DNA of 32,000 nt, from NCBI RefSeq assembly GCF_000039765.1, contig NC_004459.3, positions 3,249,867 to 3,281,866 of the forward strand, given 5' to 3'. A program made the translations under genes and the position numbers. This stretch comes from Vibrio vulnificus CMCP6. GTDB taxonomy: Bacteria > Pseudomonadota > Gammaproteobacteria > Enterobacterales > Vibrionaceae. The notes under the pieces were generated by a model that searched no databases, was not told where the DNA came from, and worked only from the letters and a program-made list of their open reading frames with translations. Positions 1-28,412 of this stretch are shown piece after piece (position 1 is the first letter of the stretch; every line of letters begins with the position of its first letter).

Positions 1-166
1 GATGGTTTTTGATTTTCTCGTTCAAGAAAAAGTGTTGTTAGTGCAGGGTTCTGGATTCAACTGGCCAAAACCAGACCACTTCCGCATTGTCACTCTACCG
101 CATATCGAAGATCTCGAAACCGCCATTGGCCGCTTTGAACGTTTCTTACATGGCTATAGCCAGTAG
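1..166 (+). CDS. alaA: Class I aminotransferase AlaA/YfbQ-like, 3' end only (gene starts upstream of window)
   Basis: Frame 2 reads ...FLVQEKVLLVQGSGFNWPKPDHFRIVTLPHIEDLETAIGRFERFLHGYSQ*, with the stop at 164-166. This matches the conserved C-terminus of AlaA as I recall it. An alaA-yfbR neighbourhood is known from E. coli. Confidence 0.8.
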   Translation, partial: MVFDFLVQEKVLLVQGSGFNWPKPDHFRIVTLPHIEDLETAIGRFERFLHGYSQ

Positions 167-237: not shown

Positions 238-480
238 GTGACTATCGTGCAAGAAAGCCATTTTTTCGCTCATTTGGCTCGTATGAAGCTAATTCAACGC
301 TGGCCATTAATGCGCTCTGTCTCCAGTGAGAATGTCTCTGAGCACAGTTTGCAGGTCGCCTTTGTTGCCCATGCTTTAGCGCTGATCAAAAACAAGAAGT
401 TTGGTGGTCACATCAATGCAGAGCGGGTGGCCGTGTTGGCCATGTATCACGATAGTAGTGAGGTTTTGACTGGTGATTAG
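238..480 (+). pseudogene. yfbR: 5'-deoxynucleotidase YfbR (HD domain), N-terminal 80 codons only, interrupted by island insertion
   Basis: The 80-aa ORF ...[74 protein letters not shown] is colinear with E. coli YfbR up to the EVLTGD motif. It then hits TAG at 478-480, where base composition changes abruptly. The expected continuation LPTPVKY... is absent. Confidence 0.8.
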
Positions 481-521
481 TTCGTTTTTCTAATATGAGT
501 AAACCAGTGACTTAGTTCGTT
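478..521 (+). repeat. 10-bp direct repeat TTAGTTCGTT x2 at the chromosome/island junction
   Basis: TTAGTTCGTT occurs at 478-487, overlapping the premature stop of yfbR, and again at 512-521, 34 bp downstream. Confidence 0.5.
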
Positions 522-563
522 AATACACATAAGTTACCATTAGACTATTGTAAGGATATTCAG

Positions 564-1163
564 TTGAAAAAATCACAAAGTACATTCATGGCATGGGTGA
601 CACGTATGCCATTAATAAAACGCTGGGCATTAATGCACTGCTTTCAAGAAGAAAATGTTTCAGAACATTCTCATCAGGTTGCGGTAATAGCTCACTTATT
701 AACTGTCATTAAAAACAAACGATATGGCGGTAACTTAAATCCAGAAAAAGCTGCAGTTACCGCCATTTATCATGAAATATCAGAAACAAAACTTCAGGAT
801 ATAAATTCAAAAACCAAGTACCACAGCCCTGAATTTACAGCAGCATTTAAAAAACTTGAAGATATTGCAGAAAAAGAATGTTTAGAAACATTACCAGAGG
901 ATTTACGTAATGAGTTCTCAGATTTACTTGTTCAAAAAAATGTAGACGCTGAATATAAAGCGATTGTAAAAGCAGCAGATATTCTATCAGCTTATATAAA
1001 GACTCTAAACGAACTTCGATTTAACAATGATGAATTTTTACATGTCAAAAAAGGACTTGATCCAAAAATTAAAAGACTTATTACTGAAATGCCTGAAGTA
1101 AAAGATTTTATGGATGTATTTTGTGATAGTTGCACTACTACGTTTGACAAAATATCAGGATAA
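564..1163 (+). CDS. Island-borne YfbR-like HD-domain 5'-nucleotidase, full length (199 aa), with HE in place of the HD dyad
   Basis: The protein is colinear with YfbR over its whole length (RWALM, ENVSEHSHQVA, KNKRYGGN, VKAADILSAYIK). By eye it is roughly half identical to the truncated chromosomal copy, and it is much more AT-rich. It has a TTG start, or ATG at the MAWVTRM position. Codons 70-71 are CAT GAA (771-776). Confidence 0.75.
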   Translation: MKKSQSTFMAWVTRMPLIKRWALMHCFQEENVSEHSHQVAVIAHLLTVIKNKRYGGNLNPEKAAVTAIYHEISETKLQDINSKTKYHSPEFTAAFKKLEDIAEKECLETLPEDLRNEFSDLLVQKNVDAEYKAIVKAADILSAYIKTLNELRFNNDEFLHVKKGLDPKIKRLITEMPEVKDFMDVFCDSCTTTFDKISG

Positions 1164-1481
1164 ATAATACCTCTCGGTATCTATAGAGTTTTAAAAAAAA
1201 GCAGAATCTGTAATCACGCATAACTTCATCACACATGCGTTATCAATATGAGTAACGTATGTAAAATGTGTTTTAACTCAAACTTTTACATAAAATCAAC
1301 ACATCAAAATTTACATACAACGCCAAGTTTGGTAACGTAAAATTGTAAAGGTTATCGTCACCTAGCCCGACTCAAGGCAAAGACGATAGTTTTGAATAGA
1401 CAAAGTAATCACTTTTCAGTGGCATTTTGCATGAGAGTCGCATAGCAAACTTCAATGCTGCACTACGACCAAGGTGAAACT

Positions 1482-2066
1482 ATGTCTAAAAACCATTCAT
1501 TACCTCAAATTTCTCCATCCGACATCTTTAAGTTAAAAGCAAAACAATTTTCATTGTTAATAACCAAAATATCAGGTTTTAGTAATATACCGTCAAAAAA
1601 AAGGTATGATTGGTTAGCTCATGCTCTAGGTTATAAAGACCACAATGATTTATTACACTCTAATTATCTTAGAAGAATTACTGATAACCGTAATATCCTA
1701 AATATTTTTAGTAATAAAAAACAACGAGAAGACATAATTAATATTTTCTGCTCTAACCTTCCTGACGTATCAAAGAAACATATAAGTGATGCTACTATTT
1801 TAATGGCTATTATAGAAAAGCCAGAATATAAAAAGTTACTATTTTCACTAATACATAGTGGAATTAGATACCCCTCAATTTCTGGGTTAATTACACCTAA
1901 AAATAATAAAATAATCACATATAAATTAAACATCCCAAGAATAAAATCAGCACACCAAAGCCTACCAAATAACACCATCAACAAAAACCATATATTTTCG
2001 TTTTCAAAATTTCGTGAAGATTATGTTAAAAACACATTATCAGAAAACTTAACGACAAATAAATGA
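1482..2066 (+). CDS. Hypothetical protein, first gene of the recombinase operon; paralog of 8334-8789
   Basis: ATG at 1482 is preceded by AGGTGA. Its stop overlaps the next start (ATGA at 2063-2066). It shares the blocks KxRYxxLAxxLGYKDHxxL and FCSNLPxVSxKHI with the 151-aa ORF at 8334. Confidence 0.6.
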   Translation: MSKNHSLPQISPSDIFKLKAKQFSLLITKISGFSNIPSKKRYDWLAHALGYKDHNDLLHSNYLRRITDNRNILNIFSNKKQREDIINIFCSNLPDVSKKHISDATILMAIIEKPEYKKLLFSLIHSGIRYPSISGLITPKNNKIITYKLNIPRIKSAHQSLPNNTINKNHIFSFSKFREDYVKNTLSENLTTNK

Positions 2067-3940
2067 AATATAGATTTGGTGAAATGGGAAATAAAAAAGT
2101 ATCTATCGGAAACTTATCCGCAAAAATAATAAGTGGGAAAAACATAAGTATCGGTGATAAAAGTGCACTTGGTGAATTAATTAAATATTTAAAAAAAGAG
2201 AATAAAAGTAAATTAATAACAACCAACTTTGATGATGTTGAATTTCTTAAATTTCTGAAATATTTATCTACGATTAAAACGACAAAACGCCGATATCAAA
2301 TTTCTGTTGCAGTAAGACGCCTTATTGCTGAAGAATTTCACAACGGAGTTGTTTTCACTATATCACCCGACGAATGGCCTGTTCCGGAAAAACCGAGACC
2401 AACGCATTTTCAACCACTAAGCTCAGAACAAATAGTCAAATTGGAAGAATTTCTAAGAGAAGAAATTGACGTTGCTTATAAGAAAGATGAAATTTTTCAG
2501 AGTGCCCGAAAATCAGGAGTGGTTAGCAACAAAATCGGCATCGACTTTTGGCACCGAGCTAACCCAGATCCAGCGTTACCTAGATTTACTGACTGGCATG
2601 AAAGCCTAAAAAATGCCATTGCTACAATATATTCTATTCATCCAAATTTTCCTAATAATGCATCAAATGAAGATTTGGCAGAAAATGGAAAATTTTATAT
2701 TCCCAAAGACCTTACATATACAAATCTTACAACAACATTTAAAACCCTCGCAAAGAGAATGGTCATGCAAAACATTCCTGGGTACACTTCATTTGTATTA
2801 GAAGCCCCAGAACTAACATATACAAAATTAATATCATATATCTACCCGGATTTACGTGAACTGATCGCTATTAAAATAGCGATTTGCTTCGAAACTGGTT
2901 GGTCACCCGATATCACCGAACGAATAGATCCAGATGATTATATTTATGACCCAATTCCTATGGAAAATGACTGGGTATTTATTAAATCAACAAAAGCAAA
3001 GGGAGCTTCTGTAAATAAGAAAACAAGACTTCGCGAACAGAGATTGATGATTCATCCTAGTTCAAAAACTGATAAATACAGTGCGTATAATTTAATAAAA
3101 TTACTAGTAAAAAGAACTTCAACATTACGAAAAGGACATTTATACGAGAAAGCAACTACAGATCTTGACGTTCACCCTGCATTCATAAGTTTAGTAGTAA
3201 ATGCTGGTCTAAAATTTGTAGCGCATTACCCATGCCGTAAAGGTGTTAATAGAAGTTCAAGTAGCAAGTTCATTGAAAAAAGTATTGGGTATAAGTTGGA
3301 TCTAAGACGACTCAGGCCAACTCGATTGTATCTAAATGAAAAAGAAAAAAAGCTGCCGCTATTGCTTCAAGTCGCGCTATTTGGGCACTCAACATCTGCA
3401 ATTACTGACGAGGTTTATAAAGACAACTCCCACTTCCAACAGCTAAGAAATGACAAACTAGCAATGGAATTAGATAGTATATTCGACAGTATTCGTGATG
3501 GTTCTTTCAAAGGAAAACTAGTTCCATTAAAACAAAGAACATGTATCAAAAAAAAGATAATAAATATCTATACAAACCACAATGGCGAGTCACCATTAGC
3601 AATCTGTAATAACCCATACTACCCCACCTGGCACTTGTCTGATGGTGGACAAATTCCCAGATCAAATAAACCATGCAAACAATTTAACAAATGTCTTACG
3701 TGTCAACAATCATCCGTTACCAGTGACAACATTCCATTTGTAGTAGATAGATTCCTCTATTTAGATCAGAAACGACGCTCAATGCGAAGTGACCAGTTTG
3801 ATTGCATGTATAGGGAAGAATATGAAGCAGCAAAAGAAGTCATCGAATCATGGCCTTATCAAGAAGATATTCAAGAAGCTGAGTTGAGAAACGCTGTTGA
3901 TGGATACCTACTTCCACCTATTATTTCAGAGAGTAACTAA
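2063..3940 (+). CDS. Large (625 aa) tyrosine-recombinase-fold protein with non-canonical box I and a C-terminal Cys cluster
   Basis: Box II-like LRRLRPTRL (codons 414-422) and LFGHSTSAITDEVY (putative Tyr452) are present. The box I position reads ETGWSPDI instead of TGxRxxE. The Cys cluster is C515, C538, C544-x2-C547. The gene is translationally coupled on both sides. Confidence 0.7.
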   Translation: MKYRFGEMGNKKVSIGNLSAKIISGKNISIGDKSALGELIKYLKKENKSKLITTNFDDVEFLKFLKYLSTIKTTKRRYQISVAVRRLIAEEFHNGVVFTISPDEWPVPEKPRPTHFQPLSSEQIVKLEEFLREEIDVAYKKDEIFQSARKSGVVSNKIGIDFWHRANPDPALPRFTDWHESLKNAIATIYSIHPNFPNNASNEDLAENGKFYIPKDLTYTNLTTTFKTLAKRMVMQNIPGYTSFVLEAPELTYTKLISYIYPDLRELIAIKIAICFETGWSPDITERIDPDDYIYDPIPMENDWVFIKSTKAKGASVNKKTRLREQRLMIHPSSKTDKYSAYNLIKLLVKRTSTLRKGHLYEKATTDLDVHPAFISLVVNAGLKFVAHYPCRKGVNRSSSSKFIEKSIGYKLDLRRLRPTRLYLNEKEKKLPLLLQVALFGHSTSAITDEVYKDNSHFQQLRNDKLAMELDSIFDSIRDGSFKGKLVPLKQRTCIKKKIINIYTNHNGESPLAICNNPYYPTWHLSDGGQIPRSNKPCKQFNKCLTCQQSSVTSDNIPFVVDRFLYLDQKRRSMRSDQFDCMYREEYEAAKEVIESWPYQEDIQEAELRNAVDGYLLPPIISESN

Positions 3941-5883
3941 TGAAACTAATAAACTTTGGCGAGATCAACATTGATAAAGACATTCAAATATCAGAAGAAA
4001 TAAATTTCAAATATAATGTTTGGAGAATTCAATATTCACAATCAGAACATATATCACTAAACTTTGAAAATTTTAGTGAAAATAATAATGTATCTAACTA
4101 TAACGATTTGGTAATTTTAATAAAAATACTAACTTATTATGAATTCCCTAAATTATTCAATTTAAACATAACCAGTTGGTTGACAACAAATCATCGCCAT
4201 TCATATTTTATTAATGTCGCTAAAAATTTTCTCCTTGATTCTGGATTTACATCTAGAAAAATGCTTTCTAATATTACTTTAAGTCAATGTAAAGGATATA
4301 TTGAAGATTGCATTTCACTATTTAAAAAAAGAATACCAGGTTCAATAACAAAACTGGATAGTGCAATATATTTTTTTGACAGATGGAGTGAATTATCTCA
4401 CAAAAAAAGGTTACCAAAAGAATTCAGATTTGAATACGATAAGTATGATATTTTAGATAAAGAAAAACGTGCTGAACTAAGAACTCTCAAAGATGAACAA
4501 TGCGATCCATGGCAACCATTGGATTCAGAAATTGTAAAATCCGTTTTCGATGAATCATTAAAATATATACAAACTTTATCTCCAACAATTATTAAATGCT
4601 CCAATTTAGTAAAAGAAAAAGGACGACGAGACGATGGTTCTTCTTGGGGAACCATAAGAAAAGATGGTCGTACAAAACATATTTTTAAAGTACTCGAGAA
4701 CATGGAAATTCCAGACATATATGATGGAGTTAAACTTTTCAATTTTAAGCCTGTAACCAAAGAGGTTACTTCTTTAGGTTACGCCAGTGGGAAGCAAGAT
4801 AGAACAACAATACCAACCAATGAAATACGGCCAGCAGTTATAAAACTAAAACGAAGTTGTATATTTATTATAGGGTTATTTACTGGTTTAAGGCGTCGTG
4901 AGATTGCATCACTAAAGGCTAAGCCAGCATATAAAAAAAATGATTGTTTATACTTAGATATTATACGTTTTAAGCAAGCCGCCGATTCAGAACAAGAAGG
5001 TGAAGAAGATAGTATCCCTATACCAAAAATTGTTGGTGATGCTATTGATATATTAATTGAATTATTTGCTATCAGCCGAAAGACATTAAATAGCCAATAT
5101 CTTTTGGTAACAGATATGCCTTCTAAAAAGAATTTCGAAAAAATAAAAATTGATACAATTACAAAAGACATTAGAAAAATAGTCGCTGATATGACAGATG
5201 TAACAGATGCTCACCCACACCAGCTGCGAAAAACTATCGCATGGTTACTGATTTCTAGAAGTGAAAAAAACATTGATCTTATTCGTCAGCTCTTTGGTCA
5301 TAAAAGTTATGGTATGACACTTCGATATATAATGCGCAACGAATTAATGGTAGAGAGTGTAATAGAGTTGTTAGAACACAACTACACAGAAGATCTACAA
5401 GAAATATTCGAGGCTATCAATAATAATAATACAGCGGGAGATCTATCAGATAAAATCAAAAAACGTATGGAAGAGCAAATTTATCCAGGTAGCATATTGG
5501 TAACCGATATTGAATCCTATGTGCGTGAATCACTAAAAGCTGGTATACCTTTGTTCGTATCGAGAGTCCCCATTGGTGGTTTCTGCATAAACGCGGGTAA
5601 TGAAGATTCTATCCCACCATGTATGATGAAAACCAATTCAAAAAGACCATGCGTTGATTTCTGTAACTACAAAGTGTGTGATTACCTAATTTTTAATGAT
5701 GAATCAATTTCTAATATTCACTCTCAAATTAACTACTACAAACAAAAGTTAAGCTATCTAGATGAATCAAGCAATGAAAAAGTTGTGACTTATTATCAAA
5801 AAGAAATTCTTGAACACAGAGAGCTTCTTGAGAGATTAGAAAATAAGAAAAATAACCAGAATTTTAAAAAGGCTCAATTATGA
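3940..5883 (+). CDS. Large (647 aa) tyrosine recombinase (phage-integrase family) with a C-terminal Cys cluster
   Basis: Canonical motifs are present: FTGLRRREIASL (Arg I), HPHQLRKTIAWLL (HxxR) and LFGHKSYGMTLRYI (His/Tyr). The Cys cluster GGFCINAG...PPCMM...RPCVDFCNYKVC spans 5584-5679. Start and stop overlap the neighbouring genes. Confidence 0.8.
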   Translation: MKLINFGEINIDKDIQISEEINFKYNVWRIQYSQSEHISLNFENFSENNNVSNYNDLVILIKILTYYEFPKLFNLNITSWLTTNHRHSYFINVAKNFLLDSGFTSRKMLSNITLSQCKGYIEDCISLFKKRIPGSITKLDSAIYFFDRWSELSHKKRLPKEFRFEYDKYDILDKEKRAELRTLKDEQCDPWQPLDSEIVKSVFDESLKYIQTLSPTIIKCSNLVKEKGRRDDGSSWGTIRKDGRTKHIFKVLENMEIPDIYDGVKLFNFKPVTKEVTSLGYASGKQDRTTIPTNEIRPAVIKLKRSCIFIIGLFTGLRRREIASLKAKPAYKKNDCLYLDIIRFKQAADSEQEGEEDSIPIPKIVGDAIDILIELFAISRKTLNSQYLLVTDMPSKKNFEKIKIDTITKDIRKIVADMTDVTDAHPHQLRKTIAWLLISRSEKNIDLIRQLFGHKSYGMTLRYIMRNELMVESVIELLEHNYTEDLQEIFEAINNNNTAGDLSDKIKKRMEEQIYPGSILVTDIESYVRESLKAGIPLFVSRVPIGGFCINAGNEDSIPPCMMKTNSKRPCVDFCNYKVCDYLIFNDESISNIHSQINYYKQKLSYLDESSNEKVVTYYQKEILEHRELLERLENKKNNQNFKKAQL

Positions 5884-6980
5884 CTTTAAAGGAAAAGGAT
5901 GTAGAAAATGTAATTGATATCCTTATCTCATCAGATTCTTTTAATGTAAAAAAACTAGCTGAGTATCTTAAGGTTTCTCGGTCCTATTTATATAAAGAAT
6001 TCCGACATCTACTACCTAAACCAGCAAGTATCACCCAAAAAAGAATAGAAAATGCTATTTTACGAATTAGACAACGGACAGGTCGCTCTCTCTTAACTAT
6101 TTCGGAAGTAGCAATAGAATCAGGAGTAAGCAGGCAAAGTATTTCTAGAGATTACAGTCATCTTTTATCTATGATAAAAGGTAAAAAATCTGTTGATATA
6201 ATTCCTAATTCAACAACAGAATCAGAAGAAAAAATTAAATTCCTAGAAGATCAAATTTCTTCTCTTAGCATGAAAAATGAAGAATATGAAGAGAATATTA
6301 AGTTAAAGGTTTACTCCGATATGATGAAGCAAGATCTTGCTTCATTTACAGCCCAAAAGGACAAAGCAAATGCTATCAAGCTACAAAATCAAAATGATGA
6401 AATAATAGCTATTAATAAACAACAAATATCAGAACTAGCGGATCTACGATCGCAATTATCAGAATTAAAAAGAAAGTCTAAAACAATCATTCCCGGGTGT
6501 AATATTATTGCTCATATCAAACCAGATTATAGTAGTATTTCATCAAAAATGGATTTAAAAACTTCAATGGAGATTTTCTTCGAAATAGAAGAAAAAAACA
6601 TAAACGATGCCATTGATATCTGCTTCACTTCACAACCTAATTCAGTAATATTTTTTCAACCTTTTCTTAGTTGCAACTTTGAAAGTCTTGGTATTACTTT
6701 ATCAAAAGGTGATGTTATTCTTATTGAAAGTAATTTTCCTCTTGCCAAGCAATTCAAAAAACTTTTACTAAATATAAGCGAAATTCCTGTCCATTCAATA
6801 TCATGTAAAGGTCACGAATTACAATTGGCAAATTTCTATTGTCGAAAGAATCACACCAATAAATTTAGCGAAGAGTTTATAGATAAGTTATATAAACTAA
6901 TATCTTATCCAGATCAGAATGATGGTTTTAAATCTGTAACGCTCGTAAAGCCTAGCCCTTCTATTTCGGCGGTAAAATAG
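5880..6980 (+). CDS. Accessory protein with two N-terminal HTH-like segments, a central coiled coil and an unknown C-terminal domain
   Basis: The HTH-like segments are VKKLAEYLKVSRSYLYKEF and ISEVAIESGVSRQSISRDY. A heptad-rich region spans about aa 115-200. The gene is embedded between recombinase genes, with an ATGA overlap upstream and a 1-nt gap downstream. Confidence 0.55.
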   Translation: MTLKEKDVENVIDILISSDSFNVKKLAEYLKVSRSYLYKEFRHLLPKPASITQKRIENAILRIRQRTGRSLLTISEVAIESGVSRQSISRDYSHLLSMIKGKKSVDIIPNSTTESEEKIKFLEDQISSLSMKNEEYEENIKLKVYSDMMKQDLASFTAQKDKANAIKLQNQNDEIIAINKQQISELADLRSQLSELKRKSKTIIPGCNIIAHIKPDYSSISSKMDLKTSMEIFFEIEEKNINDAIDICFTSQPNSVIFFQPFLSCNFESLGITLSKGDVILIESNFPLAKQFKKLLLNISEIPVHSISCKGHELQLANFYCRKNHTNKFSEEFIDKLYKLISYPDQNDGFKSVTLVKPSPSISAVK

Positions 6981-6981
6981 T

Positions 6982-8268
6982 ATGCTTATTGAACGGAAAT
7001 TAATTACATATCCATATGAAAGAACCGATTACTCTCATTACATCCTAGTTTTAAAAATAAATGATAAGATAATATTGATGAGTGCTGTAAATCTATTTTT
7101 AAAAGAAAGGACATACAGAAGTTTTAAAACCAGCGAACGGTATTCCAATATTTTAAAACGTTTCTTTCATTTTATAATAAAAAATAATGCCAACATAAGC
7201 CAAAATTTCTGGCGAGAAGTTACGGATAGCGATATTCGTGAATGGCAAGGATATATAATAAAAAAGAGAGATAATGAACACAAGAAAAGGCCAAAGGATG
7301 ATACTATATATTTAGATGCTTGTATCGTTTTCGACTTCTATTCTTGGGCAGAAAGGAACCATTTTCCGGTTTTAATAAATTCAACAAGTGTTGACTGGAA
7401 ATTTAATTTTCGAGATGAAAGCAAAATTTTATCAAGTAAAGGCATCCTATCAGGAAGTGTTCCAGATTATGCAAACATTGATATTCGTAACACACGAAGA
7501 AAGCAATTTAGAAGCTTTAATAATAAATCTGATACTATAATGGAGTTTGAAAATATCATAGCTTTAGTAACATCATATAGTGATCTAGTTTATCCAGTAA
7601 TGTTTCTTTTAGCACTAGCTACTGGTATGCGTGAACAGGGAGTATGCTCTTTCCCTTATATTGGAATCGGTGAAAATGATCATATTAGAACATATCCTGA
7701 AATAAAAAATTTGGTTCCCAAAGACCCCAAAGGAAAAACTCCCAAAACATTTCCTTTCACTACTATAGAAAAAGGGAATAAAAAAAGAACTTTAAAGGTC
7801 AACATGTCTGCCTGGAAAATAATATGCAAAACATACTTACCACTTTATTACCAAAGAAAAAAATTATTTAGACAGAAATTTCCTCATAAAAACGATAATG
7901 CTGTATTCTTCTTGAATAAGGTCGGTAAACCCGTAACACCCAAAATGGTGTCAGATGCGACGAACCGAGCAAAAAAGAAACTTAATGACCAGCACTTTCA
8001 TTGGTCATTTCACAGTACAAGGGACTGGTATGCCACAATGTTTATTATCAAACACTTAACTCGAGAACAGATCAATGTAGCACATTATGACGCAGCTATT
8101 GAAGATGCTTTACGCAAACAACTAGGACACAGTGATATCAGAACAACATACATGCATTACATCCGTGTAGCTTCTCTTCTGTTGGCAACACGTAATGGTG
8201 AATTAGATTTTTCGTTGGGGAATTCTGATGATTTTTGGAATAATATTGCTAAAACAATAACTACCTAG
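6982..8268 (+). CDS. Tyrosine recombinase/integrase (428 aa)
   Basis: Motifs ALATGMREQG (Arg I), FHSTRDWYATMF (HxxR) and QLGHSDIRTTYMHYI (His/Tyr) are present. There is an N-terminal SAM-like region with a conserved W. Confidence 0.8.
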   Translation: MLIERKLITYPYERTDYSHYILVLKINDKIILMSAVNLFLKERTYRSFKTSERYSNILKRFFHFIIKNNANISQNFWREVTDSDIREWQGYIIKKRDNEHKKRPKDDTIYLDACIVFDFYSWAERNHFPVLINSTSVDWKFNFRDESKILSSKGILSGSVPDYANIDIRNTRRKQFRSFNNKSDTIMEFENIIALVTSYSDLVYPVMFLLALATGMREQGVCSFPYIGIGENDHIRTYPEIKNLVPKDPKGKTPKTFPFTTIEKGNKKRTLKVNMSAWKIICKTYLPLYYQRKKLFRQKFPHKNDNAVFFLNKVGKPVTPKMVSDATNRAKKKLNDQHFHWSFHSTRDWYATMFIIKHLTREQINVAHYDAAIEDALRKQLGHSDIRTTYMHYIRVASLLLATRNGELDFSLGNSDDFWNNIAKTITT

Positions 8269-8333
8269 TGCCTCCTCGCCATTCAGCCTAATCCATAGCG
8301 AAGCTACACACTACGCATAATAGGGATAAATCT

Positions 8334-8789
8334 ATGCATAAGGAAACCTTTAAAGTTGCTCCTTTTAATCTTGATAATTTTAAATCGAAAGCAGTACGAT
8401 TTACGTCACTGATAGCAGAAAAGTCAGGACATGATAAATTTAAATCAAAAGAACGTTATAATTTGCTTGCTCAATCATTGGGTTATAAAGACCATGGAGC
8501 TCTCGTGAAGTTATCGCGTTCCTGGAAAATCAGTAACAATAATGCCGTTTTTAGCATTTTTGTTTATGAGAAACACAGAAAAAAAATCATTCATACTTTT
8601 TGCTCAAACCTTCCATCGGTCTCCAACAAACATATCGAAGCGGCTGTAAAGGAAATGATTGTGGACGAAAGACTAGAAATCTCTAATTTTTTACGCTGTA
8701 CTCCCATGAGCCGAGAATCGTTTGTTCAATATCATAACCGAAACTATTTCGAAGAAGTGACTTGGAGTAACTTTGATTCCCATAACTGA
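8334..8789 (+). CDS. Hypothetical protein, paralog of 1482-2066
   Basis: It shares ERYNLLAQSLGYKDHGALV and TFCSNLPSVSNKHIE with the 203-aa ORF. The upstream DNA also shares CACTACG...CTATG. It looks somewhat less AT-rich than its paralog. Confidence 0.6.
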   Translation: MHKETFKVAPFNLDNFKSKAVRFTSLIAEKSGHDKFKSKERYNLLAQSLGYKDHGALVKLSRSWKISNNNAVFSIFVYEKHRKKIIHTFCSNLPSVSNKHIEAAVKEMIVDERLEISNFLRCTPMSRESFVQYHNRNYFEEVTWSNFDSHN

Positions 8790-8934: not shown

Positions 8935-9983
8935 GACTTTGTTGCGTAAATCATTTTCGAAGCCGAACAGCCCTATTTAGATTAATTGTCAGCCAATACG
9001 ACAAGTTTTAGGCATACCAAGCCCTGTAAGCTTGTTCAACGCTTCGATCATCGCGTAAATTTCACCAACTTGTGCGTTGTAATTTTTTAGACTTAGCCGT
9101 CCACCAAGCAACTGTTTGACTCGATACATCGCCGTTTCAGATAGCGAGCGCTTGTGGTAGCCATAGCGCTTTTTCCAATGCTTGTTCGAACCATGTAGCT
9201 TTGGCAACCAACTGCTAAATTTCTCGGATGACCTCTTTCCCAGAATGCCGCTCCCTCTCTTGGAGGGATAAGAGCCACGGTTCGTCTAATACGGATTGCT
9301 TCGTCGCAATCCCTCGTGTCATAAGCCCCATCGCCTATCTCAAGGATTTTTCGACGTGTTTGCTTAAGCAAATTGGGCAGCACTTCTGCATCACTCACCG
9401 TTGATAAACTCAACTCTGCGGCAATGATTTCGTGCGTACTCGTATCTACTGCGAGATGTAATTTCCGCCACACTCTTCGTTTACCATCCGAGCCATGTTT
9501 TTTGACTTTCCACTCGCCCTCGCCATAAACTTGAGACCTGTCGCATCGATAGCAAGATGCTGAATCGGTCCTTTGGTTTTCGTTTTAAAACTTACATCAA
9601 CATCTTTGGCTCGACGACTGATACAACTGTAGTGTGGGCAGTGCAGTGCAAGTTGAGCAAGTCGAAACACGGAATCCATAAACCCTTGCGAAGCGTGAAG
9701 TGGCATTGAAAAAATGCGCTTTACCATCAAAGCGGTTGTGATGGCCAAATCACTGAAAATACGAGGTCTCCCGCGCTTGTTTTGCTTGCCTTGTCTCCAC
9801 TCTCTTATCGCTTCTTCATCAATCCAAAACGTCAGAGTGCCGCGGTTGATGAGAGCTTGATTGTATTGCTTCCAGTTGTTTGTTTTGTAACGTGGTTTAG
9901 GCATGAGACTAAAGAGTTGAATGAACGTAGCCGATCAGATCGTAAGCTTTGAATTTAGTTCCATCGATTTCCGCAACAAAGCC
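8935..9983 (-). mobile_element. IS5-family, IS903-group insertion sequence (about 1049 bp), transposase inactivated
   Basis: The terminal inverted repeats are GACTTTGTTGCGTAAATCA (8935-) and GGCTTTGTTGCGGAAATCG (reverse complement, ending at 9983). The translated ORFs match the IS903 transposase (MPKPRYKTNNWKQYNQALINRGTLTFW..., IWRKLHLAVD, ETAMYRVKQL). Confidence 0.85.
8989..9904 (-). pseudogene. IS903-like DDE transposase split into three ORFs by two frameshifts
   Basis: ORFs 9446-9904, 9093-9473 and 8989-9207 together cover one colinear transposase of about 307 aa, but in three different frames. Confidence 0.85.
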
Positions 9984-10796
9984 TCGATGGCTTGGAAAGC
10001 TCAACTCGAGGTAAACGCTGTATTGACTGCTTTACTCGCACTGAATCCTCAAAGTCTTGGATATCAACGTTCACGTTGGAGAACTGAGCCGATGGCGATT
10101 GAGGTGAATCGGATATTTGGGTTTAACGCGCACTCATCGACCATTCGTCGATGGGTGCCTAAACTTGGGATCGTCTGGCGAAGAGCCTGCATATCAAAGA
10201 TCCAGATAAAGAAGCCAAACTCACCAGAATCAAAGAGGCATTAGCGCGTTGCGACGCTGACAATCCGGTGTTTTATGAAGACGAAGTCGACATTCACTTA
10301 AACCGCAAAATTGGGTCAGATTGGATGCCCAAAGGTCAACAAAAGAAAGTAGCGACACCGGGACAAAATGCCAAATACTATCTCGCAGGAACTCTGCATG
10401 CCAACACTGGTAAAGTCTCGTATGTCGGAAGTAGCAGTAAAAACTCAGAACTGTTTATTGCGATGCTAGAGTAGTTGAAACGCCAGTACCGCCGAGCAAA
10501 AACCATTACTCTTATCATAGATAATTACATCATTCACAAGAGCAGAAAAACACAGGGTTGGTTAAAGCAAAATCCGAAGTTTGTTTTGCTTTTTCAGCCA
10601 GTGTACTCGCCTTGGGTAAACAAAATAGAGAAGCTTTGGCATACGTTGCATGAAACGGTGACACGGAATCATCAATGCAAAGTAATGTGGCAACTTTTAA
10701 AGCGGGTTCGATACTTTATGGATAACGTTTCACCATTTCCCGGCGGCGGTCATGGGCGACAAAAAAGTGGAGCATAATTAGGAACAGTTATTTAGG
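9984..10796 (+). mobile_element. IS630-family element, copy A: 5'-truncated by the IS903-like element, with a frameshift and an in-frame TAG
   Basis: IS630-type transposase blocks are present (GYQRSRW, PVFYEDEVDIHLN, LAGTLH, IIDNYIIHKS, YSPWVNKIEKLW). The right inverted repeat TAGGAACAGTTATTTAGG lies at 10779-10796. There is an in-frame TAG at 10472-10474 and a frameshift near 10190-10270. The left end is missing. Confidence 0.8.
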
Positions 10797-10996: not shown

Positions 10997-11887
10997 TTAT
11001 GCCTTTGGGGCAATATCGAGCTCTGCAATATCTTTTAACTGGCTGGCATTACGCAGCCACAATAAATGTTCTCGCCCTGTCAGGCTGTGATCTTCCGTAC
11101 AATCAACATTCCAGTAACGTAGATAGTATCCGGCAAGGGGAAGTCTTAACTTGATGCTACGATGCCAATCCGGTGAGGATTCCATAGAGAAATCCAGGGC
11201 AATAGCCTGATGAAATGATTGTGAGGGATGGGGGACTAACTCAAGTTCAACCGACTGATTCCAACTATCATCACTTTCTCTCTGTTCACTTTCCAGAACT
11301 TGTTCTTCTAGATTTTCAACCTGAGTAAACCGAGTGCAAACAAAGTCACGAAACTGATTATGTTTGCGGTCAAACGCTCTGACATGCCAACGTTGCCCAT
11401 TATTAACCAGTGTATGGGGTACGAGAATGCGTTGTGTCTCGCCTGAACTCAAAGACCAATAAGTCACTTGAATTGGTTGCTGATGGACAATACCGCGCAT
11501 TAGTCCCGCGACAATGTCGCTACTCGGGTTAAGTTGGCTAAAAGACTGAATGCATATTTCAGAAGGCTTAACAGGCATAGAGATACAGTCACCAAAGCCT
11601 TCCACTAAGCGTTGTAGTATGGCACTGCTATTATGCTCAAAAAGTGGCTGAAATTGTTCTGTGCGGTAGTAACGTTTATCTTCATGCTTGAGGACCAAAT
11701 TATCCGGCATTAACTCACGATAGAGAGTAAAGTCACGCGAACAAGACGCCAGTCCTGTTTTAAAATGCTGTATAAGGTCTGTTCTTGCAACATCACCAAA
11801 GTACTGCAAGCAAAAGTCTATAAAAGCCAATCGCTCTTTATGCGCGTAGCTTAAATCCTCTAAAGCTTTATTTCTCTGAGCTCCCAT
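10997..11887 (-). CDS. Putative WYL-domain transcriptional regulator (N-terminal HTH, central WYL-like domain)
   Basis: The N-terminus reads KERLAFIDFCLQYFGDVARTDLIQHF...SRDFTLYRE (HTH-like). The WYL-like core is GQRWHVRAFDRKHNQFRDFVCTRF. I prefer the start at the MGAQRN Met (11887) over the ORF-track start at 11947. Confidence 0.5.
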   Translation of the reverse strand: MGAQRNKALEDLSYAHKERLAFIDFCLQYFGDVARTDLIQHFKTGLASCSRDFTLYRELMPDNLVLKHEDKRYYRTEQFQPLFEHNSSAILQRLVEGFGDCISMPVKPSEICIQSFSQLNPSSDIVAGLMRGIVHQQPIQVTYWSLSSGETQRILVPHTLVNNGQRWHVRAFDRKHNQFRDFVCTRFTQVENLEEQVLESEQRESDDSWNQSVELELVPHPSQSFHQAIALDFSMESSPDWHRSIKLRLPLAGYYLRYWNVDCTEDHSLTGREHLLWLRNASQLKDIAELDIAPKA

Positions 11888-12034
11888 TCCATACCTTGAT
11901 ACTTGCAACTTGGTGGATATATTAAGGAATGCAACCGATAGGTACAATCATTTTGATAGGATGATTTTGATGTTACCTGTATCAGTTCAAAAACAGGCTG
12001 TACTGCTGTTTTCACAATACATAACAGGGAAGTT

Positions 12035-12331
12035 ATGAAAGTTTACCTAGATGACGCACGACCTACTCCAGATGGGTGGCACCGAGTCTACAGGCCTGAA
12101 GAAGCCATTGTATTACTCAAGCAAGGGACAGTATCTGAAATCAGCCTTGATCAAGATCTTGGTGATCATGAACACGGCACTGGCTATGATGTGCTTTTAT
12201 GGATTGAAGAGGCAGCTGTAACGTAAAGTTTTCAACCACCTATAATACGGGTTCACAGCGCTAACTCGTCTGCGAGAAAGAAAGTGGAGTTCGGTATCGT
12301 GAATATCAAACGTGTAAGTATGTTAGCTTGA
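12035..12331 (+). pseudogene. Small receiver-like (cyclic-phosphate-processing-receiver type) protein interrupted by an in-frame TAA
   Basis: MKVYLDDARPTPDGW...ISLDQDLGDHEHGTGYDVLLWIEEAAVT is followed by TAA at 12224-12226. The same frame continues SFQPPIIRVHSANSSARKKVEFGIVNIKR... to TGA at 12329-12331. That gives the full expected domain of about 98 aa. Confidence 0.5.
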
Positions 12332-12365
12332 GCTAATAGAAAAATGGCAAGACATACTCTATTTA

Positions 12366-12671
12366 TCACACAAGTTGAATTACATATACAGCAGTGGTTG
12401 CAGCGAAAATAGCTGCTACCTTTAGCGAAAATAATATCAATTGCCTCTTGTATCCATAAGAAATCGCTTGCTCAAGTTCGTATAGTTCAATCTTTGTTCG
12501 CTTGTCTTGATACAAAAATATGCCATCAAGTATTCTTGAGGTCATTCCTAACTTCCACTGTTCATAAAGTTTCAGTCTTTCAGCAGAAGGGAAATCATCA
12601 ATGTGGTTTCTGCTTCTGATTGCAGCCGCTATCTGGTCTACAGTTCGTCTCTTTTTCAAAAGCACCGGCAT
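12366..12671 (-). CDS. Hypothetical tail-anchored membrane protein (101 aa), last gene of the helicase operon
   Basis: A single hydrophobic segment, LILFSLKVAAIFAATTAVYVIQLV, sits at the extreme C-terminus, and the N-terminus is charged. A 16-nt gap separates it from the upstream gene. Confidence 0.5.
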   Translation of the reverse strand: MPVLLKKRRTVDQIAAAIRSRNHIDDFPSAERLKLYEQWKLGMTSRILDGIFLYQDKRTKIELYELEQAISYGYKRQLILFSLKVAAIFAATTAVYVIQLV

Positions 12672-12687
12672 TGCCCCAGTAAGTTAA

Positions 12688-13209
12688 TTAATAATCCGCT
12701 GATTTTAAGGCGCGTATTTTAGAAATCAGTTCACTAGTAACGCCCTTTCCAGACTCTGAACGTAAGTAACGATCCGGATAATGTTGCAATAGCTCTTCAG
12801 AGCCGACATCGCCACAGACGTACCATTGGGCGTTCAGACTGTGAGCATGGACTAACATCTGACGGACTGAATTATTGTCGTCCATATGCGTTCTGAAGGG
12901 TAATTCTGTCTCAGGGGCTAATTCGTCGCCAGTAAACACACCATGTTCAATAAGGTATGAACGATTGTAAAAAGCCCCCAACGGGTAAAGTAGTAGTAGC
13001 CCCGCTTCTGACGTTGCACTTCTTAACTTGTCGATAGCTTGAAAATCCGGTTCCACCATTTCTAAAAGTGTCGTTGTTCGAGCATTGAACCAATCTTTAT
13101 ACTTGGCATGTACACTTGCATTATGGTCAAAATATTCATTCGAATAGAACAAACTAAGCATGTCGAAATATAAAATCTTCACTGAAATTCCCTGCTTTAC
13201 ATTAGGCAT
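12688..13209 (-). CDS. Hypothetical protein (173 aa), no family recognised
   Basis: The ORF overlaps the upstream gene by 8 nt, which suggests translational coupling. I could recognise no motif. Confidence 0.5.
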   Translation of the reverse strand: MPNVKQGISVKILYFDMLSLFYSNEYFDHNASVHAKYKDWFNARTTTLLEMVEPDFQAIDKLRSATSEAGLLLLYPLGAFYNRSYLIEHGVFTGDELAPETELPFRTHMDDNNSVRQMLVHAHSLNAQWYVCGDVGSEELLQHYPDRYLRSESGKGVTSELISKIRALKSADY

Positions 13210-13507
13210 AGTTAAAATGGTGCTTCATGAAAAAGTCCAGATGACATCCTCTTTCTAATGCTCTTTGCTCAATTTGCTTCCATAATACCGGTAAATAGGT
13301 TTTAAGATCTTCCGCATCCGATTGGTGATATTCATCCTCACAATCTCCAGCAGCAGCTTTTAGCCACCCTGAAGGGGTCAAAATAGTGAGCCCCCGATGA
13401 AAATACTCAGGAATCGACTCCCGAATGAATTCTTCGCTACCGCTAGCAACATAAATTGTGACACCTTCACCCGTCGCGTAATAATAACTAACACCGATAT
13501 AGAACAT
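13202..13507 (-). CDS. Hypothetical protein (101 aa), no family recognised
   Basis: The ORF starts 45 nt downstream of the helicase gene on the same strand and overlaps the next gene. Confidence 0.45.
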   Translation of the reverse strand: MFYIGVSYYYATGEGVTIYVASGSEEFIRESIPEYFHRGLTILTPSGWLKAAAGDCEDEYHQSDAEDLKTYLPVLWKQIEQRALERGCHLDFFMKHHFNYA

Positions 13508-13552
13508 ATAAACTCCTTAAAAATCTCTTGCTTGATGAAACATCTTCTCTGA

Positions 13553-14944
13553 TTATAAAAATGCTGAGACTACACGCTCACGAAATTGTCCTAACCAGAT
13601 TTCATCATAAATGTCATCAGAGCCCCGGCCTGAATTGGACTGTGTAGAATAAGTTCCCCATTCTAACTGGCTGTAAATATTGATAGTTTTTATTGGTTCA
13701 GATTCAACTTCACCGCTTTGATTTGTTGCTTTTAGCTGTGTGACATACTCATCTTTAACGATTTTGGCAAAGAGACATGTTTCAGGAATGTCATGCTCTA
13801 TACGTTCCGCGTATTCAATTAAATTCTGCTCGGCAAACGTATAAAGCCAGGCTTGTTGATTTGGACTTTCGTTGACTCGTAATATCCGACCAAGTACTTG
13901 TCTAAAGTAAAGTTCTGTTTTTACAGAGCTGATATGACAACACACTTGTAATCGGGGAATATCGGTACCTTCGCTTATCATACCGACACTCACAATCCAT
14001 TGGGTCGTTCCTGTTTGATAGGCCTTAATTTCAGATTGTGGATCATCATGATGGTAGGTTACTAATGTTGCTGACTGGCCAAATTTTTCGGTCAATATTT
14101 TTTGTACTTGTTTTGCATGCTTCACCGATGACGAAACAACGAGACCACCGGCATTAAAAGACTCTTTCCGGATTTCACTAAGTTTCTGACATCCCAAGCC
14201 GAGGATATACTCCATTGCTTGAGTATTATGAATCACATCCTGATAAGACGTCTTTGATTGCTTAAGGAGTTCAAGAATAGAAGCAAATGACTTTTTCTCC
14301 GAACCTTCTGAAATCGTTAAATGTTCATTATCAACCAAAACTAATTTCGGCTTACGGCAAACTTTGTCAGCTATAGCTTCAGCTAACCCATACTGGTAAT
14401 CACAAAAAAGCTTGCCTTCCGGATCACTATATTCAGCTAAAACAATCGGAAATTTATCTGAGCGCCAAGGAGTTCCTGAAAGAGCCAAAGTATAGGTGGC
14501 AACACCTTGTATACGCGCTAATATCTGTTGTCCCCAAATGTTGGCTCTGTCTGGCCCATCGCCAGAACAGTGATGTATTTCATCAAATACGACAAGCAGC
14601 CGATATTTTTCAATGGTCCGCCAAAAGTCGTCGCCTAAATACTGAATTGACTGATAAGTAAGCGACTGACCAATTGAGCCTAGACTTCCGTTAAATGGAC
14701 AATTTATGGTTATCGAGAACGTAGCCCTCATGCCATCAGCTACAGCGACTGAAGGTGAAAAGCAAAGAATAAGATCGATCATGCCTTTATCGAGTAGTGT
14801 CTTAGCCAGTGTAGCTGACATGATGCTTTTACCGGCTCCAGGTGTTGCCTGACAGAAGAAATGGTTAGAACCGGATTCGTACTTTTCCAACGCCTGAGCA
14901 ACACATTCTGCTTGCCATTTTCTTAACATACTATGTTCTCTCAT
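13553..14944 (-). CDS. Superfamily 2 DEAH-type helicase (ResIII-like N-lobe plus helicase C-lobe), 463 aa
   Basis: Motifs present are LRKWQ (Q-like), ATPGAGKS (Walker A), VVFDEIHH (motif II), LSGTPWR (motif III), SEGTDIPRL (motif V) and FRQVLGRILR (motif VI). Confidence 0.8.
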   Translation of the reverse strand: MREHSMLRKWQAECVAQALEKYESGSNHFFCQATPGAGKSIMSATLAKTLLDKGMIDLILCFSPSVAVADGMRATFSITINCPFNGSLGSIGQSLTYQSIQYLGDDFWRTIEKYRLLVVFDEIHHCSGDGPDRANIWGQQILARIQGVATYTLALSGTPWRSDKFPIVLAEYSDPEGKLFCDYQYGLAEAIADKVCRKPKLVLVDNEHLTISEGSEKKSFASILELLKQSKTSYQDVIHNTQAMEYILGLGCQKLSEIRKESFNAGGLVVSSSVKHAKQVQKILTEKFGQSATLVTYHHDDPQSEIKAYQTGTTQWIVSVGMISEGTDIPRLQVCCHISSVKTELYFRQVLGRILRVNESPNQQAWLYTFAEQNLIEYAERIEHDIPETCLFAKIVKDEYVTQLKATNQSGEVESEPIKTINIYSQLEWGTYSTQSNSGRGSDDIYDEIWLGQFRERVVSAFL

Positions 14945-15488
14945 GTGACAATGAATTCAACATATTCGTAATTGCATTAATGTTACCCATAAACAAAGCT
15001 GCCTTTTCGTTAGCGGCAACGTGCAGACGGTCAAGAAGCTGAAATTGATCGGGATATTGTTCTTTTAACGTTTTGTACTGCTCTATCTCACCCAAAGTGA
15101 CTTCCAACTCTCCCTTTAATCTGTTGCGCTCAACCGTTAATTCTGAGTAATCGTTACTATCACTGTTTATAACTGAAACTTTTGGGAGACACTTTTTTAC
15201 ACGTGATTTAGGTTTACGAGGCTCAAAAGAGAGCGAATAAAACTCGTCAGTTTTGAAGTAACGCTTTTCCCTACCAGAACCTTCACAGCGCAACCATCCG
15301 CTTTCAATACACTTTAATAACTGTCGATAAACAATCTTTCGAAGCTCATTGATATCTTTAGGACTTTCGGAGAACAAGCGAGCGGCATCTCGAGCCTCGA
15401 CAACGGAAAATCCATCCATCTCTTTTTCTATCAATAACTTATAAATATACACGTTTATCTTTTGAGAACGTTTCACATACAACTCCAA
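14931..15488 (-). CDS. Hypothetical winged-helix-like / coiled-coil protein (185 aa), first gene of the helicase operon
   Basis: The N-terminal approx. 90 aa resemble a wHTH (IVYRQLLKCIESGWLRCEGSGREKRYFK). The C-terminus is heptad-rich (RNRLKGELEVTLGEIEQYKTLKEQ). The gene overlaps or abuts the helicase start. Confidence 0.5.
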   Translation of the reverse strand: MELYVKRSQKINVYIYKLLIEKEMDGFSVVEARDAARLFSESPKDINELRKIVYRQLLKCIESGWLRCEGSGREKRYFKTDEFYSLSFEPRKPKSRVKKCLPKVSVINSDSNDYSELTVERNRLKGELEVTLGEIEQYKTLKEQYPDQFQLLDRLHVAANEKAALFMGNINAITNMLNSLSHERT

Positions 15489-15498
15489 AACACCAAAA

Positions 15499-15549
15499 AC
15501 TTAGGATTGCTAAGTATACAAAAATAAGTAAAACTTAGACAATCTAAGT
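15499..15549. promoter_or_regulatory. Two related 17-bp palindromic operators in the divergent XRE/helicase-operon promoter region
   Basis: ACTTAGgattgCTAAGT lies at 15499-15515 and ACTTAGacaatCTAAGT at 15533-15549. Their centres are 34 bp apart, within the 92-bp intergenic region. Confidence 0.55.
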
Positions 15550-15580
15550 TATCGAAGGATTTAAGAGAAATGAATCGTCT

Positions 15581-15898
15581 GTGGAAGACAACCCGATACC
15601 TATGCGGCTTAAAAAAGCTCGCAAACATGCCAAAATTACCCAGAAAAACTTGGGGATAATGATCGGTATGGATGAAAGCTCTGCAAGTGGCCGAATGAAC
15701 CATTACGAAAAAGGGCGACATACGCCGGATATCAGCACATTAAGAAAAATGGCTGATGCTCTTGGCGTGCCGTTAAATTACTTTTTTTGTGAGGATGAGG
15801 CGTCTGCTGAGTTAGCGACGGCAATCTCGAGATTATCTGAAGCTAAAAGAAATCAAGTGCTTAAATTTGTAAAATCACTAGAAGAAAGTGACGAGTAA
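15581..15898 (+). CDS. XRE/Cro-C1-family HTH transcriptional regulator
   Basis: MRLKKARKHAKITQKNLGIMIGMDESSASGRMNHYEKGRHTPDISTLRKMADALGVPLNYFF is a typical HTH_XRE domain. The start is GTG at 15581 or ATG at 15602. The gene is divergent from the helicase operon. Confidence 0.8.
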   Translation: MEDNPIPMRLKKARKHAKITQKNLGIMIGMDESSASGRMNHYEKGRHTPDISTLRKMADALGVPLNYFFCEDEASAELATAISRLSEAKRNQVLKFVKSLEESDE

Positions 15899-17439: not shown

Positions 17440-17845
17440 TTAGTAGCCGAAAGAAATGGTTCTTGCATCGTTTGCGTCGTTCTTTTGTCTACCGACGAAC
17501 GACTTAACATGTTGTGCTGGTATGCGTGATACCTTAAAACTAAGCCCTAAAAAGACTCGCCCCCAATATTGTGATGAAGCATATGACTCCCTAGCCAGTG
17601 GAGTATTATCTGGAAGTTGACGGATTGTATGGAGCAGTTTGTTTCGAAGGACCTTAAGATTTAACGAGATGGTACCGTCAATATTCAATAAGCATACTTG
17701 AAAGAAGTTCTTAGCTAAATCGATCCCAATAACTTTAATCGACATGGCTGTTACTTCTGCTTTTAATGGCTGTACCTATCGTGTTGTACAACAATGCAAG
17801 AAGGGAGGTGTATCCATCACATCAAAGCCGCTTGCTTGGCATGTA
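17440..17845 (-). mobile_element. IS110-family element, 5' fragment only (N-terminal approx. 100 codons plus upstream end)
   Basis: MSIKVIGIDLAKNFFQVC...QKNDANDA is an IS110-type DEDD N-terminus. The DNA upstream (17746-17845) is homologous to that upstream of the second IS110 copy (GTACAAC..AGAAGG.AGGTG...CATCACATCA.AGCC). The outer boundary is approximate. Confidence 0.65.
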
Positions 17846-28328: not shown

Positions 28329-28412
28329 TGTGATTTTAATTGATAAGCGCGAGATAATCGAGATTTGCATGCAGTTAAGTCAGAATAATTGCATACTTTG
28401 TGAGGCTGTAAA

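Follow-up and report, generated by a model that had tools for sequence, protein, structure and literature searches.

What machinery inserts and mobilizes the genomic island that interrupts yfbR in Vibrio vulnificus CMCP6? The island begins within a 32,000-nucleotide stretch of contig NC_004459.3 (positions 3,249,867 to 3,281,866, forward strand; hereafter the window, whose first letter is position 1). Near its left end stands a tightly packed series of plus-strand genes which an initial annotation, made from the sequence alone, had taken for a multi-tyrosine-recombinase integration module. We conclude that positions 478 to ~8790 are probably the conserved left arm of an integrative island of the type of PDE1, a defence island of Vibrio lentus, and that it carries a probable four-protein recombination machine related to that of the strand-biased circularizing class of integrative elements (SEs), with its gene order permuted.

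The gene block and the island's left end

Four large genes make up the core: 2063-3940, for a Tfp-like tyrosine-recombinase-fold protein of 625 aa; 3940-5883, for an IntB-like large catalytic tyrosine recombinase of 647 aa; 5880-6980, for an accessory helix-turn-helix (HTH)/coiled-coil protein of 366 aa, predicted to bind DNA; and 6982-8268, for an IntA-like ordinary catalytic tyrosine recombinase of 428 aa. They are preceded by small1 (1455-2066, 203 aa, of no known family) and followed by its paralogue small2 (8334-8789, 151 aa), all on the plus strand; the two small proteins are 44% identical over 107 aa (E ~1e-25), in agreement with the duplicated small flanking gene described initially. 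The open reading frame (ORF) list and the junction sequences place ATGA overlaps at 2063, where small1 is coupled to the module, and at 5880, a TAATG at 3940, and, at 6981, one T that separates the TAG stop of the 366-aa gene from the ATG of the 428-aa gene, reproducing every coordinate and coupling of the five start/stop-coupled ORFs that had been listed for 1455-8268. The G+C content of the module region is ~30-36%, against 38-51% in the rest of the window. Promoter and terminator scans returned no more sites than did shuffled sequences, and an exact-sequence look-up of the 647-aa protein found no record.

The island abuts a broken host gene. The chromosomal flank consists of the 3′ end of the host aminotransferase gene alaA (yfbQ) (2-166, plus strand, from the ORF list) and the 5′ fragment of host yfbR, codons 1-80 (238-477, plus strand), whose matches to PF12917 and NF003009 are restricted to profile positions 1-77. 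This alaA-yfbR neighbourhood recurs, with Aminotran_1_2 matches, at five of the related loci that we compared (L002, L005, L024, L025 and L050). The stop codon of the fragment (TAG, 478-480) is already island DNA: alignment with related loci puts the boundary at 477/478, where host ...ACTGGTGAT gives way to TAGTTCGTTTTT, and the island's left end is thus window 478, at codon 80/81 of host yfbR, among the HD-motif codons directly after ...TGD. Homology with L001 and L002 begins at the left terminal motif TAGTTCGTTTTT (478-489, plus strand), which would form one arm of a terminal imperfect inverted repeat. A second direct copy of TTAGTTCGTT (512-521, plus strand; family D6) lies 35 bp from the first, and the same spacing is kept in L005, L011, L012, L014 and L017; this copy is a probable further recombinase-binding site (repeat form TTAGTTCG). 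On the host side of attL, the putative crossover or overlap is CTGGTGAT (470-477), on the model of L035, a complete metagenomic element. The junction, in which TA[GAT]T[TGA]CG directly follows host ...GGNGAT, is found in 11 loci from Vibrio, Photobacterium, Marinobacter and marine metagenomes. An exact left junction common to so many genomes bears out the placement of the module at an island end.

Two other repeats were noticed in this region. The 11-mer AATATGAGTAA (492-502) is exactly repeated upstream of small1 (1245-1255), and an inverted copy of the terminus (GTGATTAGTTCGT, 85%) stands at 1400-1412 versus 473-485. They may be additional binding sites or may have been left behind when small1 was acquired, and chance could explain either.

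Between the left end and the module lies yfbR* (564-1163, plus strand), encoding a full-length divergent 5′-deoxynucleotidase (PF12917, 5e-62; NF003009, 2e-75) that is 53% identical to the host yfbR fragment and in which the target site reads YHEISETKLQD in place of YHDxxEVLTGD. This gene stands directly upstream of the module in many relatives (L001, L002, L005, L011, L012, L014-L017, L032, L034-L037), so that 1455-8789, the limits drawn initially, leave out a conserved part of the unit.

The idea that a variant yfbR of this kind always marks an island was rejected on the evidence of two genera. In Shewanella (L018-L020) and Tatumella saanichensis (L021-L023) the island-type allele is the sole yfbR, standing at the native alaA locus with neither an island nor a 5′ stub adjacent. 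The allele, YHE[IV]SETKLQD, is 73-99% identical across genera (clade sequences P0034-P0153), and that of Shewanella and Tatumella is either the native source of the island copy or a gene-replacement scar.

Insertion into yfbR, its truncation and the presence of a divergent copy are the features described for PDE1 of V. lentus (Hussain et al., 2021, bioRxiv 10.1101/2021.03.26.437281), and the island in the window has all three. The V. lentus locus L050 presents alaA, a 77-aa yfbR stub, yfbR*, genes for 614-, 650-, 367- and 427-aa proteins and a type I restriction subunit (HsdR), a layout that fits the PDE1 description and probably, as judged from these genes, belongs to the same element family. 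The cargo of PDE1 differs from that in the window, and the PDE1 study treated a defence island “with integrases on the periphery”, its analysis lying outside the recombination genes, ends and mechanism. Our search of the literature found no description of this gene order or of a yfbR-targeting multi-recombinase element.

Conservation of the module

The conserved unit comprises a yfbR copy and the four large genes, and was found in Vibrio, Photobacterium, Paraglaciecola, Marinobacter and marine metagenomes, with products in complete relatives of 607-625, 644-664, 360-372 and 416-429 aa, in that order. Since the order and tight coupling of the four large genes are kept in relatives down to 35-45% identity, the arrangement is not due to chance. 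The two small ORFs are restricted to the window and its close V. parahaemolyticus relatives, small1 having homologues only in L001 and L002 among the loci compared, and by this distribution they are lineage-specific accessories. The five-gene unit proposed at first therefore holds as regards coupling and gives way, as a conserved unit, to the yfbR copy plus four genes without small1.

Several variants of the plan occur. Paraglaciecola sp. T6c and metagenomic L031 have cargo on the left side of the module. In a metagenomic subgroup (L026, L027, L029, L030 and L031) a yfbR copy only ~39% identical to yfbR* stands downstream of the last recombinase gene, on the opposite strand; replacement of the target gene has therefore been solved at least two times in the family. 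In Marinobacter-type members (L035:5681-8337; L015, L034, L037) genes for a 153-aa coiled-coil protein and a 732-aa RecD2-like SF1 helicase (domains AAA_30, HHH_RecD2 and UvrD_C_2) are inserted between the accessory gene and the last recombinase gene, translationally coupled to their neighbours; this helicase gene is not in the window. Pseudomonas IncP-2 megaplasmids (L006, NZ_CP096928.1; L007, NZ_CP104587.1) carry a distant module in the same order and without yfbR, with 784-, 700-, 314- and 426-aa products, at 21-26% identity; it follows a PAPS-reductase-family gene and precedes a gene for an AAA ATPase or a DNA methyltransferase. A 1.5-kb contig filed as Bacteriovorax sp. DB6_IX (L013, NZ_AUNJ01000384.1) matches the 3′ part of the 625-aa gene at 100% identity, and is most likely Vibrio prey DNA in that assembly.

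These variants bear on whether the four genes act as one unit. The 428-aa gene is the least tightly linked, being 2.6 kb apart in the Marinobacter type and separated by an extra ORF on the Pseudomonas plasmids, and Tn554 offers a precedent for a large recombinase with a small accessory gene; one might thus imagine that the 428-aa integrase alone moves the island classically, the genes for the 625-, 647- and 366-aa proteins being a nested Tn554-like transposon or a passenger. We consider this quite unlikely. The four genes occur together, in the same order, in every complete member from 96% down to ~22% identity, and the genes inserted in L035 are coupled, so the operon runs on into the 428-aa gene. 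The trio was never seen with ends of its own, and the conserved block starts exactly at the island terminus. In SEs and GInts, moreover, the tested core genes are needed: single knockouts of intA, intB and srap abolish SE recombination, a tfp mutant not being obtainable (3 of 4 genes; PMC10214605), and all four genes of GInts, in which a co-transcribed ginABCD lies at the 5′ end of the island, are required (Bardaji et al., 2017, PMC5385486).

The module proteins

The 647-aa and 428-aa proteins both match PF00589 (2e-10 and 1.4e-9, respectively). In the former, GLRRRE, HQLRKT and GHKS..LRY align with the recombinase motifs and there is a C-terminal Cys-cluster extension; the corresponding motifs of the latter are TGMRE, FHSTR and GHSD..TTYMHY. 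By these matches and their Arg-I, HxxR, His and Tyr motifs the two are recognizable as catalytic tyrosine recombinases. A phmmer search of PDB with the 428-aa protein gave a spurious GldM match only.

The 625-aa protein matched no Pfam or other family, and its family profile found nothing among PDB sequences. Its AlphaFold (AF2) model, with a predicted local distance difference test (pLDDT) score of 80, retrieved Tn1549 Int, XerH, IntI, Cre and lambda Int at a Foldseek probability of 1.0, and on this model, in which both domains are matched, the protein has the recombinase fold. It had been described at first as degenerate, which is right as to Arg-I, where it has Ser; R418 (Arg-II), H442 (His-III) and Y452 (the tyrosine) are retained, so the loss is restricted to that one residue. 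Near its C-terminus is a C4 motif (C515, C538, C544 and C547). Counted over 106 full-length superfamily members, the Arg-I position is N or S in 104 and T in the other two, never R, while Arg-II is R in 105, His-III is H in 101 and the nucleophile is Y in 104; each Cys of the motif C-x(15-26)-C-x5-C-x2-C is present in all 106. The family is small: an exhaustive profile search of 1.84 billion representatives yielded just 133 relatives, none of them like SE Tfp.

The 366-aa protein has weak matches to HTH_11, HTH_7 and TetR_N and appears to hold two HTH units. In PDB its profile found TetR N-terminal domains (E 0.03-0.1, over the second HTH) and coiled coils. A long helix (113-199) and a C-terminal alpha/beta domain complete the protein, in a single-sequence model with a pLDDT of 42 that is poor outside the helix.

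Comparison with SEs

SEs carry intA-tfp-intB-srap at their left end (the motif C end), leave a 6-bp footprint spacer, and circularize in a strand-biased manner without producing an empty site (PMC10214605). For comparison with the module, small SE profiles (3-4 sequences) were built from four plasmid-borne modules (L010, L047, L048, L049) and run locally with hhalign. The 428-aa family aligned with IntA at 92.7% (E 4.1e-7, 317 columns), the 647-aa family with IntB at 92.2% (E 5.7e-7, 294 columns, through the C-terminal Cys-rich extension) and the 625-aa superfamily with Tfp at 77.5% (E 1.9e-5, 276 columns). These pairings are reciprocal, and cross-pairs gave 0.1-1.9%, except for 647-aa versus IntA (65%, catalytic domain only). 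A baseline of XerD and Cre, whose sequences were approximate, stayed at or below 6.4% with the narrow 625-aa family profile and with those of the 428-aa and 647-aa families. XerD did reach 63.7% with the broad 625-aa superfamily profile, over just 37 columns in the region from box II to the tyrosine. From the hhalign pairings the components therefore match those of SEs one to one (Srap weakly), with the order cyclically permuted and intA last.

The Tfp alignment keeps TGxN (no Arg-I), LR, H, Y and the C4 motif in register, with PDCxxxxGCLFC in SE Tfp versus PCxxFNKCLxC in the 625-aa family. The C4 motif is present in 4 of 4 SE Tfp proteins, giving the shared pattern TGxN...LR...H...Y...C-x(n)-C-x5-C-x2-C. 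The published description has Tfp without an RHRY motif; in the four SE Tfp proteins (L010, L047-L049) we saw Asn at Arg-I, with Arg-II, His, Tyr and PDCxxxxGCLFC retained, a pattern suggesting that Arg-I alone has been lost, as described for GinC.

The likeness seems to extend beyond single proteins. SEs appear to have the same four-component core, including a recombinase-fold protein that lacks Arg-I and bears a C4 motif and an HTH/coiled-coil accessory, and the core likewise lies at the left end of the element. They appear to share with the module's relatives short imperfect terminal inverted repeats and a host-like spacer beside the right repeat, with different dimensions: a 6-bp spacer and C/C′ repeats of 13-19 bp in SEs, ~7-8 bp and 9-12 bp in the relatives. 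Site-specific targets, marine gammaproteobacterial hosts and the absence of conjugation genes among those seen are further common points. Some SEs, those like SE-6283, cut bcp by inserting into it and bring a copy of that gene with them (PMC9345347), a parallel to yfbR and yfbR* here.

A similar habit is seen in PDE2 of V. lentus, in which a thiol peroxidase gene is disrupted and a second copy carried (bioRxiv 10.1101/2021.03.26.437281); it resembles the SE-6283-like insertion into bcp with bcp carried, and by this analogy multi-recombinase elements may account for more than one such defence island.

Comparison with GInts, Tn554 and recombinase-in-trio elements

GInts come close in other ways. 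GinC lacks the first arginine and keeps the rest of the motif, and the islands have 10-11 nt imperfect direct repeats (PMC5385486). They too have a four-gene module with an Arg-I-less recombinase-like protein, a helical accessory (GinD, which is small) and cargo right after the module, and imperfect direct repeats flank the island as they do in the module's relatives, those of GInts being 10-11 nt long. The target is an ABC-transporter gene in pseudomonads, as opposed to yfbR.

Tn554 (tnpA, tnpB, tnpC) likewise combines an ordinary and a large recombinase with a small accessory, inserts site-specifically and has imperfect terminal inverted repeats, but it lacks the third recombinase-fold protein that is present and conserved here, and its hosts are Firmicutes. 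A tblastn search with the 647-aa protein found no staphylococcal plasmid copies at E <= 1e-3. Recombinase-in-trio elements have three adjacent catalytic recombinases of ordinary size, whereas here only two are catalytic, one of these being 647 aa long, the third protein lacks Arg-I, and an HTH protein stands among them. The view put forward at first, that the gene order does not obviously match that of SEs, GInts, Tn554 and recombinase-in-trio elements, was thus upheld, with the refinement that the order is permuted relative to SEs.

Right ends and terminal repeats

No yfbR 3′ remnant lies within the window; the right end of the island therefore lies past it. The right end of the window's own element was not found, short yfbR* contigs having given left ends only, and a scan of viral contigs had no matches. 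Three independent right ends were recovered from relatives: Paraglaciecola sp. T6c (L003), metagenomic L031 and L035 (to which L041 is identical). In all three, the host gene picks up again at residue 79. Taken as the reverse complement, the right ends present 8 host-core-like bases (GGTCGGAC, ACGGGGAT or GTGATGAT on the top strand), and then a sequence of the TATTTCGA or TAATACGA type, an imperfect inverted copy of the left terminus. L035, with both ends known, has an attL of ...CCGGGGAT joined to TAATGCGGAAAA and an attR of TTATTCGTATTA-ACGGGGAT-ATGCCC; its attL CCGGGGAT is repeated at attR by ACGGGGAT, which separates the right inverted repeat from the point where the host gene resumes. L003 and L031 are laid out alike at their right ends. 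A homology search for the left junction of T6c found fragments only. Relatives with both ends accordingly have imperfect terminal inverted repeats of the TA[GT]TTCG type, 9-12 bp long, and an imperfect 7-8 bp flanking direct repeat of the host GGNGAY core; a TGTAAAC motif lies ~20 bp inside each terminal repeat of L026 and L031. In the window itself no inverted copy of the end motif rose above chance.

Mobility and cargo

From the junction on, two V. parahaemolyticus assemblies (L001 and L002) differ by one mismatch in 13,465 bp (99.993%), while the DNA upstream of the junction is unrelated. One of them is in the canonical yfbR beside alaA. The L001 copy is in a different HD-domain gene, 38% identical to yfbR and cut after the same aspartate codon (...LHDVAEVLCQD). 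Recent movement is therefore implied by near-identical copies in two target genes. The island in the window is 93% identical to these over the core (475-8772), after which the cargo differs.

The secondary target was seen by comparing L001:8162-8395 with L002:8165-8395. It lies in an unrelated region with a DNA methylase, and its core, CAGGAT, is that of yfbR* as well, which argues against a simple target immunity of yfbR*. The proposal that yfbR* is immune to insertion by virtue of its diverged site is weakened in consequence.

These data also bear on whether the module might be an inactive relic, or might serve some end other than mobility such as inversion or phase variation of the cargo. 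Decay does occur: in V. tasmaniensis (L005) the 366-aa gene is truncated and the 428-aa gene missing, and the cargo in the window is littered with insertion sequence (IS) fragments. The module ORFs of the window are nevertheless all intact with conserved catalytic residues, near-identical copies occupy two target genes, and an identical core is followed by differing cargo, and we regard a relic or a non-mobility role as very improbable.

The broken transposase pieces in the cargo lie at 8989-10777, 16153-16455, 17440-17745 and 21762-22211 and are of IS5, IS630 and IS110 type, the IS630-type pieces being one 100-aa DDE_3 fragment in two copies. The first piece is ~200 bp past the conserved core, which suggests IS-mediated turnover of cargo. 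A minus-strand cluster at 10997-15898, with a WYL-domain protein, several small ORFs of no known family, a 463-aa ResIII/Helicase_C protein (weak PbeA-like matches) and a divergent HTH “control protein”, is possible defence or regulatory cargo. Farther on, 22976-29960 (G+C 32-40%) encodes a response regulator-TPR protein, a response regulator-EAL protein and a 1254-aa hybrid histidine kinase with periplasmic binding domains, and is either island cargo or host DNA.

Classification of the module

Several observations weigh against the relationship to SEs or against the end architecture that we propose. BLASTP, tblastn and HMMER found no similarity of the module proteins to SE proteins, for which the tmexCD1 SE of pHNAH8I-1 served as reference, and the link rests on hhalign with the small SE profiles and on shared motifs. 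The 366-aa family aligned weakly with Srap (11.5%, E 0.0026, 49 columns, second HTH versus the Srap N-terminus), and the accessory, with its two HTH units and extra C-terminal domain, is 2.5 times as long as Srap (366 versus ~140 aa). The order is tfp-intB-srap-like-intA in the window and all relatives versus intA-tfp-intB-srap in L010 and L047-L049. GInts have two catalytic proteins, then the degenerate one, then ginD, whereas here the protein without Arg-I leads and an ordinary recombinase closes the series; it is this order that sets the module apart from GInts, to which it may be more closely related. As for the ends, unanchored local alignment of left versus right ends was not significant, and the inverted repeat, short at 9-12 bp, is seen only when the alignment is anchored at the termini; the end architecture therefore rests on position and recurrence, not on statistics. 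The attR and the inverted and direct repeats of the window's element are inferred from relatives at 35-55% protein identity.

The module might also be a plain member of a known family. In favour of SE or GInt membership one may count the same component set, the hhalign pairings with SE IntA, IntB and Tfp, the loss of the first arginine as in GinC, marine gammaproteobacterial hosts as for SEs, and the carriage of a target-gene copy as in SE-6283-like elements with bcp. Yet tfp-intB-accessory-intA fits neither intA-tfp-intB-srap nor ginA-ginB-ginC-ginD, the BLAST and HMMER searches had no matches to SE proteins, and none of the 133 representatives from the exhaustive profile search resembles SE Tfp. 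The SE survey, whose operational definition is a tfp-srap synteny block recovered by 11 rounds of PSI-BLAST, moreover scored a carrier chromosome, NC_008228.1 (T6c), as 0 SE (Additional file 4) and does not include it in the tfp/srap list (Additional file 3), nor does it appear in the portion of the ginC/ginD list available to us (PMC10214605). We therefore consider plain membership unlikely. The module fails membership of SEs and GInts on gene order and is missed by the operational definition of SEs, while being homologous to SEs in parts. The early suggestion of a distinct or undescribed variant is accordingly supported: the SE survey missed a carrier genome. The island type itself is already known as PDE1.

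More tentatively, and with less confidence than we place in a PDE1-type island with SE-related machinery, the module may represent a third multi-tyrosine-recombinase lineage, as yet unclassified and sister to SEs and GInts, and be the first of its members to be recognised. Its defining traits may be the permuted core, the targeting of the HD-motif codons of yfbR and the replacement of the broken gene by a variant allele.

Mechanism and significance

The machine of this PDE1-type island most likely works in the manner of SEs and GInts, given the distant homology of its four proteins to SE IntB, IntA, Tfp and, weakly, Srap. As a model, the four proteins made from the operon would carry out integration and circularization, acting jointly on attL x attR and attP x attB. 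The 647-aa and 428-aa recombinases would share the strand exchanges. The 625-aa protein, with its C4 zinc-type motif, probably serves in a structural or regulatory capacity at the repeated end motifs, and the 366-aa protein probably as a DNA-binding accessory in a Srap/GinD/TnpC-like role, the Tfp-like and HTH/coiled-coil proteins assembling a complex on those motifs. The yfbR* product would compensate for the broken host yfbR. Both strand-biased copy-out, as in SEs, and true excision would be compatible with the model. The helicase in the operon of some relatives hints, by analogy, at a replicative or single-strand step; together with the Tyr, Arg-II and His kept in the Tfp-like subunit, this RecD2-like protein may be in keeping with copy-out by a replicative and single-strand-biased route, the active site being shared or provided in trans.

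For SEs, GInts and Tn554, a poorly understood group, there are few studied examples on which to judge copy-out versus excision and the role of the non-catalytic subunit. Having the same four parts in another order, the module allows a comparison that shows what is essential among the set of components, the missing Arg-I, the C4 motif and the architecture of the ends. It also supplies a simple rule for annotating proteins that now pass as “hypothetical”: a 5′ stub of yfbR accompanied by a variant copy of that gene and by the four genes. What is new is the dissection of the recombination module; the island type was already known for its defence cargo. The finding links multi-recombinase machinery to the phage-defence islands that drive the turnover of phage resistance in wild Vibrio, and the third lineage, if it is a true one, would be a vehicle of fast-turnover phage-defence islands in marine Vibrionaceae.

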